Shown here in pieces: positions 30,255 through 33,696 of a DNA stretch of 38,540 nucleotides. Below the pieces are notes generated by a model, which saw nothing but the letters and a program-made list of their open reading frames with translations, was not told the DNA's origin and ran no database searches. The translations under genes and the position numbers were made by a program. Position 1 is the stretch's first letter, and every line of letters starts with the position of its first letter. This DNA is from a virus. Its lineage: Duplodnaviria > Heunggongvirae > Uroviricota > Caudoviricetes. The stretch lies in IMG/VR virus record IMGVR_UViG_2541047933_000012, one strand, 5' to 3'.

Positions 30255-30593
30255 CTATTTCCCTGAATTTACGACGAAACTGTTCGAGCGGACTGAAGCA
30301 TTCATGCTCATAGCCTTCGCGGAGGTAGATAACCCGTTGTGTTTCCGGTTCCCAACGAATGACTCTGACGGGCACTCCGTAGTGATCTTTGAACCAGCGG
30401 TTAACTTGTCGCAAAGGACTGTCTCCTTCTGCCGGTTGAAATCACCCACAGCCCACTCAGCAAAGCTGTGGGTTACAATTTCCCTGTCACCTGGTACATT
30501 TACTGCATAGCAATACTCCACCTTCGCTTTTCCACCCGGTACAGGAAGCGCAATCAGTTGCGAGCGACGGTAGTGTGTTGTTAAACTGTTCAT
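30255..30593 (-). CDS. Hypothetical early protein
   Basis: 112-aa ORF coupled to the upstream gene by an ATGA overlap. Confidence 0.3.
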
Positions 30594-31153
30594 GCGTTAG
30601 TTTCTCCACAGTCACGACACGCCACGGCGCCCGGAGCTGCACACTCGCGGGCGTCACTACTTTCTGAAACGCAAAAGATTTTGTAGACCAGTGCTGCATG
30701 CTCCTGCAGCTTCGAAATTGAGAGGTACAGCTCATCGTTAATTGCTGTCTTCTCATGCGGTTCCACTACACCGTCTTCAATTGCTGAACGAATCTGTTTT
30801 GAATAACTGCCGATCTGTTCAATGACCTCCAGCAGGCGTTGGTTGATATCGGCGTTGTCCACATCCTCGACGTCAGGAAGAGACACAAAGACGCCATTTG
30901 CAGACTGCGCCACAGCATCAGCAATGAAGTGAGTGCCACCAGCACGCTGTAAAACCATTGCCCATCCCAGCGGGAAAATCTGATCGCCATCTGCACGAAG
31001 GCGGTTGAATAAAGCGTTTTCTGTTACATCGAGCCAGTCAGCCGCTTCAGCGTAACCACCCGGCAACGCCGCGATCGTTTTTCTGACAGCTTTCACGTAC
31101 CACTCAGGCTGTTTTTCTATTTTCCAGTGATGCTTACCCACGATTAGCCTCAT
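30590..31153 (-). CDS. Hypothetical early protein at the cII position
   Basis: 187 aa immediately downstream of the cro-like gene; function assigned by position only. Confidence 0.3.
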
Positions 31154-31184
31154 CGTTCTGTGGTTAAAAATTGAAAGTGTTCTG

Positions 31185-31385
31185 CTAATCTTTCGGATAG
31201 ATATCCGGTCTTAAGTCAGATTTCGTAATTGCACCTGACGTGCATTGCTCAAGTTTTTTAGCCAGCACAAAACTGGCTTTTTTATAGCCATTGAAAACCA
31301 GCCGTAAGTAGCCAGGTGTTGAGCCAACTTTTCCGGCCAACTCGCCCTGCTGTTCTTTGGTTAAAGAGTCCCAATACGCTTTCAT
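31185..31385 (-). CDS. cro: Cro-like HTH repressor
   Basis: 66 aa from the ATG at 31385 with GGAGG upstream; divergent from cI across the operator region. Confidence 0.5.
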   Translation of the reverse strand: MKAYWDSLTKEQQGELAGKVGSTPGYLRLVFNGYKKASFVLAKKLEQCTSGAITKSDLRPDIYPKD

Positions 31386-31391
31386 ACAATG

Positions 31392-31458
31392 TGTACCTCC
31401 GGTGTACATATTACATGATTGAAATGAACCTTCAAGATACTTGTACCTTAACGGTACA
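31392..31458. promoter_or_regulatory. OR region: two 17-bp palindromic operators with overlapping PR and candidate PRM
   Basis: TGTAC-ctccggt-GTACA (31392-31408) and TGTAC-cttaacg-GTACA (31442-31458). Minus-strand PR reads TTGAAG-N16-TAATAT; plus-strand candidate PRM reads TTGTAC-N16-TTTAAT, ending 8 bp before the cI ATG, which has no ribosome-binding site. Confidence 0.5.
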
Positions 31459-31475
31459 AGGGTTTTAATTTCGTT

Positions 31476-32150
31476 ATGAAAACAATCCATGACATCCGGC
31501 GGTCTAACGCCAGAAAACTGAGAGATGGTGTTGGCGGGAATTCTTCCTTTGCCACTATGATTGATCGCGAGCCAACCCAGACCAGCAGGTTTATGGGAGA
31601 TGGTGCTACTAAAAATATCGGTGACAGCATGGCACGACACATCGAAAAATGTTTCGACCTGCCTGTCGGATGGCTCGATCAAGAACACCAGACAACGAAC
31701 ATCACAAAAAAACCTGATGTTTCAATCACTAATAAACAAATCACATTAGTCCCTGTCATATCATGGGTACAGGCCGGAGCATGGAAAGAAGTTGGATATT
31801 CTGAGGTTGATTTGAGCACAGCAGAAACGTATCCCTGCCCTGTACCCTGTGGGGAAATGACTTATATCTTGCGGGTGATAGGTGATTCAATGATTGATGA
31901 GTACCGCCCGGGAGACATGATTTTTGTCGATCCTGAAGTACCTGCCTGCCACGGTGACGACGTTATTGCATTGATGCACGATACAGGTGAAACCACCTTC
32001 AAAAGGTTGATAGAAGATGGGACACAGCGTTATCTCAAAGCGTTAAACCCAAACTGGCCTGAGCCTTACATTAAGATCAACGGTAATTGCTCTATAATTG
32101 GTACTGTGATTTTCTCAGGAAAACCAAGAAGATACAAAATCAAAGCCTAA
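31476..32150 (+). CDS. cI: CI-like repressor with S24 (LexA-type) autopeptidase domain
   Basis: 224 aa with N-terminal HTH and C-terminal S24 hallmarks (VIGDSM Ser, downstream Lys). Confidence 0.8.
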   Translation: MKTIHDIRRSNARKLRDGVGGNSSFATMIDREPTQTSRFMGDGATKNIGDSMARHIEKCFDLPVGWLDQEHQTTNITKKPDVSITNKQITLVPVISWVQAGAWKEVGYSEVDLSTAETYPCPVPCGEMTYILRVIGDSMIDEYRPGDMIFVDPEVPACHGDDVIALMHDTGETTFKRLIEDGTQRYLKALNPNWPEPYIKINGNCSIIGTVIFSGKPRRYKIKA

Positions 32151-32162
32151 TCAATGTTTATG

Positions 32163-32186
32163 AACCTGCTTCGGCAGGTTTTTTTA
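32163..32186 (+). terminator. Intrinsic terminator after cI
   Basis: AACCTGC-ttcg-GCAGGTT followed by TTTTT. Confidence 0.65.
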
Positions 32187-32188
32187 TA

Positions 32189-32221
32189 CTTGACAATGTA
32201 CCTTTGAGATACATAATGTAC
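32189..32221 (+). promoter_or_regulatory. Operator-overlapped consensus promoter (PL-like or sRNA promoter)
   Basis: TTGACA (32190-32195), 16-bp spacer, CATAAT (32212-32217); a third operator-like site TGTAC-ctttgag-ATACA (32197-32213) lies between them. Confidence 0.4.
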
Positions 32222-32301
32222 CCAAGAGAAACAACAAACAGGCAGGACGCCCACGAAGTAGCCGCCTGGGGCATATGAAGTCCAGGATGATTCGTTAGCA
32301 A

Positions 32302-32324
32302 CAAAAAAGCGCCCTATAGGACGC
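32302..32324 (-). terminator. Intrinsic terminator downstream of the DUF1311-like gene
   Basis: Minus-strand GCGTCC-TATA-GGGCGC stem (one G-U pair) followed by TTTTTT. Confidence 0.5.
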
Positions 32325-32352
32325 TTCGCTCTTTAACAATCTGGATGACTTA

Positions 32353-32865
32353 TTACTCAGATTTGAACTTTGGTTCTGGCAAAAGAGGAGGAGTTGAGTC
32401 CTCGAATCGTAGCCAGTGCTCCCAGATATCGTGGGATTGTAATTCCAGAAGACCAATTTGACGTGATGCAACTGCAGTGCCAGCTATAGTTCCTCCTGCA
32501 TAATCAACCTGGACGGACTTTGACGCTTTCTCAATTAATTCTGTCCAAGCTTCACTTTCCGCGTTAAAAGAAGCAGTTAATTCCTGCAGACGCTGTGGAT
32601 CATCCTTGTTGTCTTGTTTCAAACGATTCAGGGCGGCCACCGAATACTTATTCTTAACCCAACTAACCTGAGCTAACTGAACTCTCTGACAAGCGTCCAT
32701 ATCAGTAGTTGTTTCCTGAGGCATATCAAAGCAGGAAATAAAAAAAGTCTCAACACCATCATTTAGACTACTGCTCGGCTGGTTCAAAGCATCAGAAGCA
32801 TTGGATGCTATCGGTATTATCAGTGCTACCGACAGAATCAAACGTTTAACATAAATCGCTCCCAT
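32353..32865 (-). CDS. Secreted DUF1311-like (LprI-type) protein
   Basis: 170 aa with N-terminal signal-peptide-like segment; convergent with cI and has its own terminator. Confidence 0.4.
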   Translation of the reverse strand: MGAIYVKRLILSVALIIPIASNASDALNQPSSSLNDGVETFFISCFDMPQETTTDMDACQRVQLAQVSWVKNKYSVAALNRLKQDNKDDPQRLQELTASFNAESEAWTELIEKASKSVQVDYAGGTIAGTAVASRQIGLLELQSHDIWEHWLRFEDSTPPLLPEPKFKSE

Positions 32866-33196
32866 TTAATTATCCCCTCTAAGAACAGAGTCATCCAGAT
32901 TAGCCGAATCCTTGTTGTTGGGGAATAACCAGGCCCACCTCGCCTGATGTGGCTAAAAGCAGGCACATAACAGCTAAGTATTTTCAACCAGAGAGAATCC
33001 TTAGCGTTGTGGTGAATGCGGCTCAGCGCACGCGGGTTAAGGTTGAGGCTGACAGTCGACCTTCTGTGGATACCCACCCGCCTGGTGTGCAACCTTCGCC
33101 AGGCACCGGGAGGCACCCGGCACCACAACTTTATGCTGTGTGTAGTCCTGGCGGTACCAGCTTGTACCCTTGCTTCCGGCTGGTACCGCTCTTTTT

Positions 33197-33285
33197 ACAA
33201 AACAGAGAAGAGCATCACCGGACGACGGGCTCATAACCCAATCCACCCGGGCGGCTGCCACCGCAGGTGTTCTTCTCTGTTTTGT
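33197..33285 (+). ncRNA. Long perfect inverted repeat in the early-left leader (structured RNA candidate)
   Basis: ACAAAACAGAGAAGA (33197-33211) pairs perfectly with TCTTCTCTGTTTTGT (33271-33285) around a 59-nt GC-rich loop; the stem extends to about 20 bp with G-U pairs; no U-tract follows. Confidence 0.35.
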
Positions 33286-33333
33286 GGAGAAACCAACCGA
33301 CCTTGCAGGGTCGATATGATGAGGAGCAGCAAA

Positions 33334-33696
33334 ATGGCTAGCGAACGCAGTACCAACGTGCAGGAATTTATCGGGGAGCTGGACGGCGGCGTATTTGAAA
33401 CCAAAATCGGCGCAGTTCTCAGTGAAGTCGCTTCCGGTGTGATGAACACGAAAACCAAAGGTAAGGTCTCGCTCAACCTGGAAATCGAACCGTTTGATGA
33501 GAACCGTGTGAAAATAAAACACAAACTCTCATATGTTCGTCCGACTAACCGCGGGAAAATTTCCGAAGAAGACACCACCGAAACGCCGATGTATGTCAAT
33601 CGCGGTGGTCGCCTGACTATTCTGCAGGAAGACCAGGGACAATTACTGACTCTTGCCGGTGAACCTGACGGAAAACTCCGCGCAGCAGGTCATTAA
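33334..33696 (+). CDS. YfdP-like hypothetical early protein
   Basis: 120 aa from the ATG at 33334 with GAGGAG upstream; the annotated 226-aa ORF is a 5-prime overextension. Confidence 0.45.
   Translation: MASERSTNVQEFIGELDGGVFETKIGAVLSEVASGVMNTKTKGKVSLNLEIEPFDENRVKIKHKLSYVRPTNRGKISEEDTTETPMYVNRGGRLTILQEDQGQLLTLAGEPDGKLRAAGH

Follow-up and report, generated by a model that had tools for sequence, protein, structure and literature searches.

Ribonuclease III (RNase III) cuts long helices that flank the ribosomal RNAs (rRNAs) and, in lambda, the N-leader site of the PL operon and sib. Mimics of transfer RNA (tRNA) are found in leaders, as in the thrS operator, and in the P4 CI and P1 C4 RNAs, which are processed by RNase P. 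In phage HK022 the put RNA, about 70 nucleotides (nt) long and with two stem-loops, gives factor-independent antitermination via the beta-prime zinc-binding domain, and putR lies about 270 nt from the PR start. The other copy, putL, lies shortly downstream of PL (PMC9378689). STnc100 and PasD have been reported as related, Hfq-associated small RNAs (sRNAs) of prophages (bioRxiv 10.64898/2026.05.13.724894). A further prophage sRNA, sRNA-17 of E. coli K1 RS218, was mapped by northern blot and 5' and 3' rapid amplification of cDNA ends (RACE) as an RNA of 193 nt, was linked to virulence and was reported by its authors to be without an Rfam homologue (PMC7719688). Here we describe positions 32870-33333 of the IMG/VR virus record IMGVR_UViG_2541047933_000012 (38,540 nt; the whole stretch is called the window), where an initial annotation, made from the sequence, had proposed a structured leader with a long inverted repeat ahead of the first early-left gene, yfdP.

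The window is an SfV/e14-like E. coli prophage, and loci in ATCC 11775, UTI89, S88 and others are 100% identical to it. Our preferred reading, held with moderate confidence, is that the region is a transcribed, non-coding + strand leader and not a promoter or operator region. It would comprise an sRNA with its terminator, followed by a three-way junction RNA (element 2), and would be built of tRNA-derived modules. The region has 54.3% G+C, as compared to 50.1% in the window and 41-47% in the flanks. Folding of positions 32960-33340 gave -164.6 kcal/mol (z = -6.09), and none of 100 shuffled sequences was as good. The non-coding and highly structured nature of the leader, as initially annotated, was supported, and it could be assigned to the + strand RNA.

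The predicted small-RNA gene and its paralogue in RS218

The 5' two thirds of the leader contain the following features.

32935-32964, + strand: upstream hairpin module CCACCTCGCCTGATGTGGCTAAAAGCAGGC, where the BLAST homology with SfV, SfII and phiES15 begins
32973-33005, + strand: 5' stem-loop GCTAAG...CTTAGC of the minimum-free-energy fold, ahead of the sRNA core
33005-33129, + strand: multibranch core of the sRNA, closed by CGTTGTGGTG / CACCACAAC and including the hairpin CCGGG-AGGCA-CCCGG (33106-33120)
33130-33150, + strand: single-stranded linker TTTATGCTGTGTGTAGTCCTG, unpaired in the fold, a candidate seed
33151-33196, + strand: intrinsic terminator, with the GGTACC palindrome as its stem (33151-33161 / 33179-33189) and then TCTTTTT

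The Rfam model of STnc100 (RF02076) matched positions 32976-33198 on the + strand with 45.4 bits (E = 2e-8 in a 1-kb search), and the alignment covered all of the model, positions 1-206 of 206, with the terminator included. An exact match to CACCGGGAGGCACCCGGCACCA was found in this alignment, and the GGTACC palindrome together with UCUUUUU was treated as the terminator, in agreement with the fold. On the same model ST64B scored 35.1 bits, P1 33.4 bits and the canonical copy of 933W 207.7 bits. The consensus fold of the core with ST64B, P1 and phiES15 contained three compensated pairs, and at the position of the 5' stem-loop ST64B carries GATAAGAGTT...AACTCTTATC, which is a compensatory change. 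By this alignment, a known prophage sRNA family gains a new, divergent member in the sRNA part. In the linker, GCTGTGTGnAGTCTT is kept in most homologues and the sRNA-17-type rows carry AGCCACTGCTTT instead; since GCUGUGUGUAGUC is conserved in most homologues, and not in the sRNA-17-type copies, it is a candidate seed. Inside the window no complement of the linker was found beyond chance.

The upstream hairpin module is also present in phiES15 and in loci of the L090/L097 type. In phiES15, a Cronobacter phage (L155, 1400-1700), a DicA-like repressor gene is followed by the same sRNA core, which carries a compact classical terminator and stands 35 nt before kil. There is no long hairpin there, indicating that the sRNA and long-hairpin modules can occur separately.

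Both smaller structures that had been pointed out initially, the CCGGG/CCCGG hairpin and the GTAC palindrome, are present, the latter as an 11-bp perfect repeat (GCGGTACCAGC / GCTGGTACCGC) that forms the terminator stem. The terminator hairpin has a stem of 11-13 bp and a stability of -23.7 kcal/mol, and it is followed by UCUUUUU. It was missed by a simple terminator scan because of its 17-nt loop. At the same position a hairpin and a U-run are kept in ST64B, phiES15 and others, with unrelated stem sequences.

For sRNA-17, 3' RACE placed the end of the RNA at this same hairpin with its U-run (PMC7719688). From the published sequences of its primers, RACE primers and northern probe, sRNA-17 runs from CGTTGTGGTGAATGCG to GGTACCGCTCTTTT and has the same sense as yfdP (sequences from PMC7719688). 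It is located in a lambdoid prophage directly upstream of yfdP, as is the window copy, and the sRNA-17-type copies (L054, L069 and L114) also precede element 2. The first 16 nt (5' CGTTGTGGTGAATGCG) and the closing helix are identical in the window, the GGTACC terminator is 96% identical, and the length of 193 nt compares with 192 nt predicted for the window copy. About 120 nt of the interior, and the linker, could not be aligned between the two. The window copy, for which about 33005-33196 (192 nt) is predicted, can be classed by sequence as a mosaic paralogue of sRNA-17, because the ends and the closing helix match while the interior and the linker differ. As the interior is not the same, the window copy was not assigned the seed and targets of sRNA-17. 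The latter also sits in another prophage of the same strains, and its authors do not mention the downstream hairpin.

In wild-type RS218 yfdP is silent (0.49 reads), and replacement of sRNA-17 by a cat cassette raised yfdP 2^6.58-fold (about 95-fold) and also raised yfdR (PMC7719688, Table 1). These two genes showed the strongest changes in the published deletion. Since both are directly downstream of the sRNA, we read their induction as a cis effect; the cat cassette probably acts here in cis or by polarity, and not through trans regulation. Part of the published deletion phenotype, namely the induction of yfdP and yfdR, may thus be a cis effect on the downstream operon.

The long inverted repeat and the three-way junction

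Directly after the terminator the leader continues with element 2 and the sequences that lead to yfdP.

33197-33285, + strand: element 2, a three-way junction RNA of about 90 nt that begins right after the U-run
33197-33216 / 33266-33285, + strand: closing helix
33218-33250, + strand: anticodon-like arm, with GGG (33227-33229), the loop CTCATAA (33230-33236) and CCC (33237-33239)
33251-33264, + strand: small second hairpin, variable in sequence and length among homologues
33286-33293, + strand: GGAGAAAC, directly after the helix, with GGAGA invariant and the last three bases nearly so
33298-33313, + strand: small hairpin CGACCT-TGCA-GGGTCG ahead of the ribosome-binding site, with a U·G-closed NGCA tetraloop (-8.5 kcal/mol)

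The 15-bp perfect inverted repeat on which the initial annotation was centred lies exactly at 33197-33211 and 33271-33285, with 59 nt between the arms, and this interior is GC-rich as described (67.8% G+C). The proposed extension also held, to 25 nt at 84% complementarity (33197-33221 / 33261-33285). Perfect 15-bp repeats with a loop of at most 100 nt are rare, with a mean of 0.01 per window in 200 first-order Markov shuffles. Folded alone, positions 33197-33285 gave z = -7.06, and the stability of the hairpin was -43.5 to -49 kcal/mol.

Conservation of the structure in related prophages, which had been named as a check on the annotation, was tested by covariation with 33 non-redundant sequences, and the long helix was found to be kept with compensatory changes. 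In this alignment 95.3% of the cells were paired, as compared to 39-47% in slid controls, and none of 500 shuffles reached the observed values. Nine pairs change on both sides, and the long helix, with its 20 pairs, accounts for six of the nine. A U·G wobble occupies alignment columns 26/104 in 29 of 32 sequences, and further G·U pairs occur elsewhere. These pairs fit only the + strand, and element 2 is therefore a + strand RNA. ST64B, which is 78% identical, has compensatory changes and G·U wobbles that preserve the helix. With a covariance model derived from the alignment (R1), a single copy was detected in the window, with 120.4 bits. Rfam gave no match to element 2, and in our literature searches no description of the long hairpin was found. 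The long hairpin is a conserved RNA motif that is absent from Rfam.

With 20 covarying pairs, and up to 25 with the U-run/GGAGA extension, the closing helix has the size of an RNase III substrate (a near-perfect RNA helix of at least 20 bp). The suggestion of an RNase III site in the initial annotation therefore has a plausible candidate in this predicted helix of 20-25 bp.

A hairpin of this stability could also serve, in tandem with the terminator before it, as another terminator or attenuator, and its 3' arm has a U-rich stretch (CUCUGUUUUGU). This stretch is paired inside the helix, though, and what follows the helix is the conserved GGAGAAAC and not a U-run, which makes this explanation very unlikely. 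The hairpin also encloses 49 nt of conserved substructure, unlike intrinsic terminators, and it was not called by the terminator scan.

The region might also be a protein-coding gene or pseudogene, or act at the DNA level as a cruciform, recombination site or repressor site. The annotation pipeline of RefSeq (PGAP) has a frameshifted pseudogene of a hypothetical protein over about 33009-33319 (L001, 3140-3450), and small hypothetical proteins are annotated here in several phage records. The five open reading frames (ORFs) across the region, three on the + and two on the - strand, gave no Pfam or NCBIfam match, and no frame is conserved open across 41 homologues, as expected from the initial statement that there was no convincing ORF. 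The helix substitutions are compensatory, with G·U wobbles that are allowed on one strand only, which argues against both coding and a role of the DNA itself. For a DNA-level role it can be said that TGTACC, the cI operator half-site, is present in the terminator loop. Against it, the same terminator is found in phages of other immunity types. The GTAC palindromes were tried as cI operators and rejected, as the region has no operator-spaced match and the palindrome is the terminator stem. Taken together, we regard a coding or DNA-level function as extremely unlikely.

Among homologues of the small hairpin at 33298-33313 the stem sequence changes, and the hairpin and the GCA loop are kept, as in GGCGGTGGCAGCCGCC. 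A short leader ORF of 11 codons is possible at 33284-33319, which would start with GTG at 33284-33286 (GUG-GAG-AAA...) and stop with TGA at 33317-33319. An in-frame ATG at 33316, which lies upstream of the start annotated for yfdP, overlaps with this stop, and the ORF has no Shine-Dalgarno sequence. A start codon (GUG or AUG) precedes GAG in 66 of 67 unique homologues. The stops of this ORF are no better placed relative to the main start than those in shifted frames, and the variants come from few independent lineages, so that translational coupling has no statistical support.

Apart from the long repeat, the window has just one perfect inverted repeat of 15 bp whose loop is no longer than 100 nt, AATAATAAAGGCCGT-tcgtt-ACGGCCTTTATTATT at 24310-24344. 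With the - strand ORF 23893-24297 on one side and the - strand ORF 24350-24685 on the other, it has the look of an intrinsic terminator that works in both directions.

tRNA likeness and distribution of element 2

The tip of the anticodon-like arm contains CGGGCTCATAACCC (33226-33239), a stretch of 14 nt identical to the anticodon arm of metZ tRNA-fMet, in which the loop CUCAUAA is closed by three G-C pairs. Three G-C pairs in the anticodon stem are a mark of initiator tRNA. No tRNA gene was called by ARAGORN in the window, nor did RF00005, the tRNA model of Rfam, give a match at E <= 10 in 32600-33600. In the related locus L102 the place of the sRNA core is taken by a sequence to which the Rfam tRNA model gives 43.9 bits (its gathering score is 29); a D arm, a T arm and the same acceptor helix are present, with 64 nt replacing the anticodon arm. 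ARAGORN reported no tRNA in L102 or L096. In several homologues a hairpin resembling a T arm lies immediately upstream of the core. These tRNA-like sequences at the same positions in related loci suggest that the leader of the window would be an array of tRNA-derived modules.

Relatives of element 2 were collected with a search pattern fixed on the most conserved BLAST stretch. The pattern was found in at least 120 loci of viral contigs and in 24 species-representative genomes, almost all of them Enterobacterales and belonging to at least 15 genera (Escherichia, Shigella, Citrobacter, Enterobacter, Klebsiella, Kosakonia, Leclercia, Mixta, Erwinia, Pantoea and others). Of the 5426 complete E. 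coli genomes in RefSeq, 2809 gave a match to the 471-nt region, and in 1610 of these at least 80% of it was present. In early-left leaders element 2 always stands ahead of the first gene, which may encode a YfdP family protein, an RdgC-like protein, YfdR or others. As the downstream gene varies, element 2 goes with the start of the operon and not with yfdP.

A second form, type B, was found in Klebsiella-type phages. Here 6 nt separate the same core from a preceding tRNA-Asn/tRNA-Arg or tRNA-Thr, with Q located upstream and holin genes downstream. The closing helix measures only 6 bp and ACCA or GCCA (NCCA) comes next, and the covariance-model scores are 37-40 bits (E of about 1e-7). The Pantoea copy again has the long helix behind a terminator, as seen in its sequence and in its covariance-model match. 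Phage P1 (L004, AF234173, 1926-2625) has three tandem units, each consisting of a long-stem tRNA-like element and an STnc100-like core, which are located in the C1-controlled ban operon after tRNA-Asn and tRNA-Thr. These copies are looser: the covariance model matched two of the long-stem elements, with 34.2 and 29.5 bits, and a canonical GGGTTCGAATCCC T arm is present in one. The P1 units overlap the annotated - strand ORFs plp and upl, and the reality of both may deserve a second look.

The tip might be a working mimic of the initiator-tRNA anticodon arm that serves as a decoy, sensor or recruiter, with the rest of the element only presenting it. Candidate readers of such a tip would be a VapC-type anticodon nuclease, the 30S P site with initiation factor 3 (IF3), or methionyl-tRNA synthetase (MetRS). 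The stretch GACGGGCUCAUAAYCCAAUCCA is the most conserved one, and nearby helices covary or are replaced; the motif persists across three architectures and two operon contexts, and copies of type B, which have the size of a tRNA, are found within tRNA arrays and end in NCCA. The invariance of the motif is partly circular, however, since it was fixed by the search pattern. The only unbiased matches are those from BLAST and the P1 covariance-model matches, and the latter have UUCAUAU or GUCAUAU loops. In addition, conserved mismatches replace the two lower pairs of the tRNA anticodon stem, and ST64B has a U at position 37. We consider such a working mimic unlikely.

A combined proposal has a low probability in our view. 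According to it the tip would be a selected mimic of the initiator-tRNA anticodon arm (a decoy, a sensor or a handle for ribosome or enzyme) employed by temperate enterobacterial phages, and the STnc100/PasD/sRNA-17 sRNAs and the element would be exapted tRNA genes. The tip could then act as a decoy, for example against VapC-type nucleases that cut tRNA-fMet, or contact the 30S P site or MetRS. Modular tRNA-derived regulatory arrays would head phage operons, with the three units of the P1 ban operon among them.

The same tRNA-like sequences at matching positions in related loci, and the P1 units that adjoin real tRNAs, would also fit an inert, decaying phage tRNA array in which only the sRNA part is functional and the long hairpin is a leftover. 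The failure of ARAGORN and the Rfam tRNA model to find a tRNA in the window agrees with decay. Compensatory changes in 6 of the 20 helix pairs are not produced by decay, though, nor does decay preserve a near-invariant 22-nt core in at least 15 genera or the fixed place before the first gene of the operon, so that we find a leftover quite unlikely.

Transcription of the leader and comparison with known systems

The initial annotation had pointed to 32870-33333 as the place where lambdoid phages have PL/OL, nut or put elements. The promoter and operators were instead found upstream, in the following arrangement.

Left of cI, - strand: cro (ymfT)
31392-31408 and 31442-31458: OR operators between cro and cI, TGTACC-N5-GGTACA with 1 and 0 mismatches
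31476-32150, + strand: cI (ymfK)
32162-32181: cI terminator
32190-32217, + strand: PL promoter, TTGACA (32190-32195), a spacer of 16 and CATAAT (32212-32217), near-consensus (11/12 in the promoter scan)
32197-32213 and 32217-32233: OL operators with the TGTACC-N5-GGTACA pattern, 1 and 2 mismatches, overlapped by PL
32353-32865, - strand: secreted-protein ORF of 170 amino acids with a signal peptide, between PL and the leader
33321-33326, + strand: Shine-Dalgarno sequence GAGGAG in front of yfdP
33334 (ATG) to 33696 (stop), + strand: yfdP, the first early-left gene (yfdP-yfdQ-yfdR...), from the ORF list and the RefSeq annotation of an identical locus

The OL and OR operators have the TGTACC-N5-GGTACA motif in common. 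With a promoter and two OR-type operators at 32190-32233, PL/OL is outside the region, about 650 bp upstream, and yfdP is the first + strand gene beyond the repressor gene. The ORF at 32353-32865 gave a weak match to LprI (PF07007; E = 0.006, below the cut-off) and is antisense to any PL transcript; SfV has the + strand gene orf33 there instead. In E. coli K-12 the prophage CPS-53 (L126, 9248-9604) has kept yfdP-yfdQ-yfdR and lost the whole leader, for which reason K-12 data sets are of no help. CPS-53 shares only the last 25 nt or so before the yfdP start codon, and the DNA upstream of this has repeats of the GATTTTGA(C/T)G type. In the early-right region of relatives, C4 antisense RNA (RF01695) and isrK (RF01394) scored above their gathering thresholds (ST64B, L003, 409-597; L010, 2538-2726); the window has neither.

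According to our preferred reading of a leader RNA, transcription in lysogens would stop at the terminator (33151-33196), so that the sRNA is made and the early-left operon stays silent. After induction, read-through transcripts, chiefly from PL, would fold into the three-way junction, and the closing helix of 20-25 bp may be a processing stalk that is cut by RNase III. Such a cut would free the operon mRNA of the part with the sRNA and terminator. It would also fix the 5' end of the first gene and how well this gene can be translated. The long helix would thus act as a processing or translation-control structure, and the near-invariant tip may be a selected recognition determinant. The 5' end of sRNA-17 lies at the base of the acceptor-like helix and no promoter was found just upstream, which makes RNase P-type processing of the sRNA possible.

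Several points weigh against this. RNase III cutting, as proposed, leaves the invariant tip and the 6-bp helix of type B unexplained, and an antitermination factor that would let PL transcripts pass the terminator was not identified in the window, SfV or phiES15. Directly upstream of the 5' end predicted for the sRNA, promoter scan and sequence reading revealed no convincing sigma-70 promoter; the only site there, at 32846-32873, scores 9/12. The RF02076 match stays just below the gathering threshold of 47 bits, the window gave no match at gathering level, and the sRNA-17 variant gave no match to the STnc100 model at E < 0.01. The expression evidence was obtained with a paralogue, which a different prophage of the same lineage of E. 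coli carries. The rise of yfdP in the sRNA-17 mutant could be read-through from the cat promoter, and would then say little on the wild-type terminator.

The terminator between PL and the early-left genes calls for some read-through mechanism, and a protein-independent, put-like processive antitermination RNA that binds RNA polymerase had been thought conceivable in the initial annotation. It had also stated that no N-like protein gene was evident, and indeed no plausible + strand ORF was found between PL and the leader, and no N-like arginine-rich protein at the same place in SfV and phiES15, where SfV orf33 and phiES15_010 have no arginine-rich N terminus. The sRNA core is moreover made before the terminator is reached. 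The position does not fit, with the RNA beginning about 780 nt downstream of PL and putL being just downstream of PL (PMC9378689), and neither does the architecture, which is a five-hairpin multibranch structure or a three-way junction as compared to two stems in about 70 nt. The paralogue terminates at its own terminator in vivo, giving the 193-nt RNA (PMC7719688), and element 2, being located after the terminator, cannot act on it. Comparison with HK022 27600-33000 (nun-cI-cro and the putL/putR region) gave only chance matches of 10-14 nt (E = 4.7), in a search for which no put covariance model was built. A put-like element is therefore very doubtful. For a nut element, the boxA resemblance CGCUCUUUUUACAA at 33187-33200 was examined and discarded, since homologues have GCCCUU, GUCCUU or GACCUU there and no N-like protein adjoins PL.

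The leader is matched in about half of the complete E. coli genomes in RefSeq and is likely a mis-annotated, very common locus; in one RefSeq record that we inspected the stretch is annotated as a frameshifted pseudogene and not as an RNA. Our results tie the virulence-linked sRNA-17 to the STnc100/PasD family and to a putative tRNA origin. Element 2, with its covariation support and its wide spread in phages of Enterobacterales, is a testable candidate for a new phage RNA function. The results also raise the question of how PL transcription passes the terminator before the early-left genes in phages that show no N-like protein.

The sRNA part shares with STnc100 and PasD the GGUGAAU start, the core-closing helix, the CACCGGGAGGCACCCGGCACCA hairpin, the 3' terminator and a location in prophages. 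It differs in the inner hairpins and the linker, as is reflected in the scores of the canonical 933W copy and the window copy (207.7 and 45.4 bits). Canonical STnc100 is found in the late region (Q, stx and lysis genes), whereas the window copy is in the early-left leader between cI/PL and yfdP. In 933W, the one canonical copy that we read, it lies between stxB2 and an esterase gene, and element 2 does not follow.

With HK022 put the leader has in common that it is a cis-encoded structured RNA in an early operon of a lambdoid phage without a visible N-like protein; position, size, architecture and sequence are different. Element 2 resembles a tRNA in its acceptor-like helix, anticodon-like arm and T-like hairpin, in addition to the 14-nt identity with tRNA-fMet, and relatives have canonical T arms, NCCA ends and places inside tRNA arrays. 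Unlike a tRNA it has no D arm, its closing helix is 20-25 bp long, its anticodon stem has 3 pairs, and the window copy lacks a CCA end. To the RNase III sites of lambda and the rRNAs there is no sequence relation, and type-B relatives are without the long helix. As in those sites, the putative substrate is a long, near-perfect helix that flanks a structured RNA or lies between the promoter and the first early-left gene, and here this helix bears a conserved tRNA-like junction.

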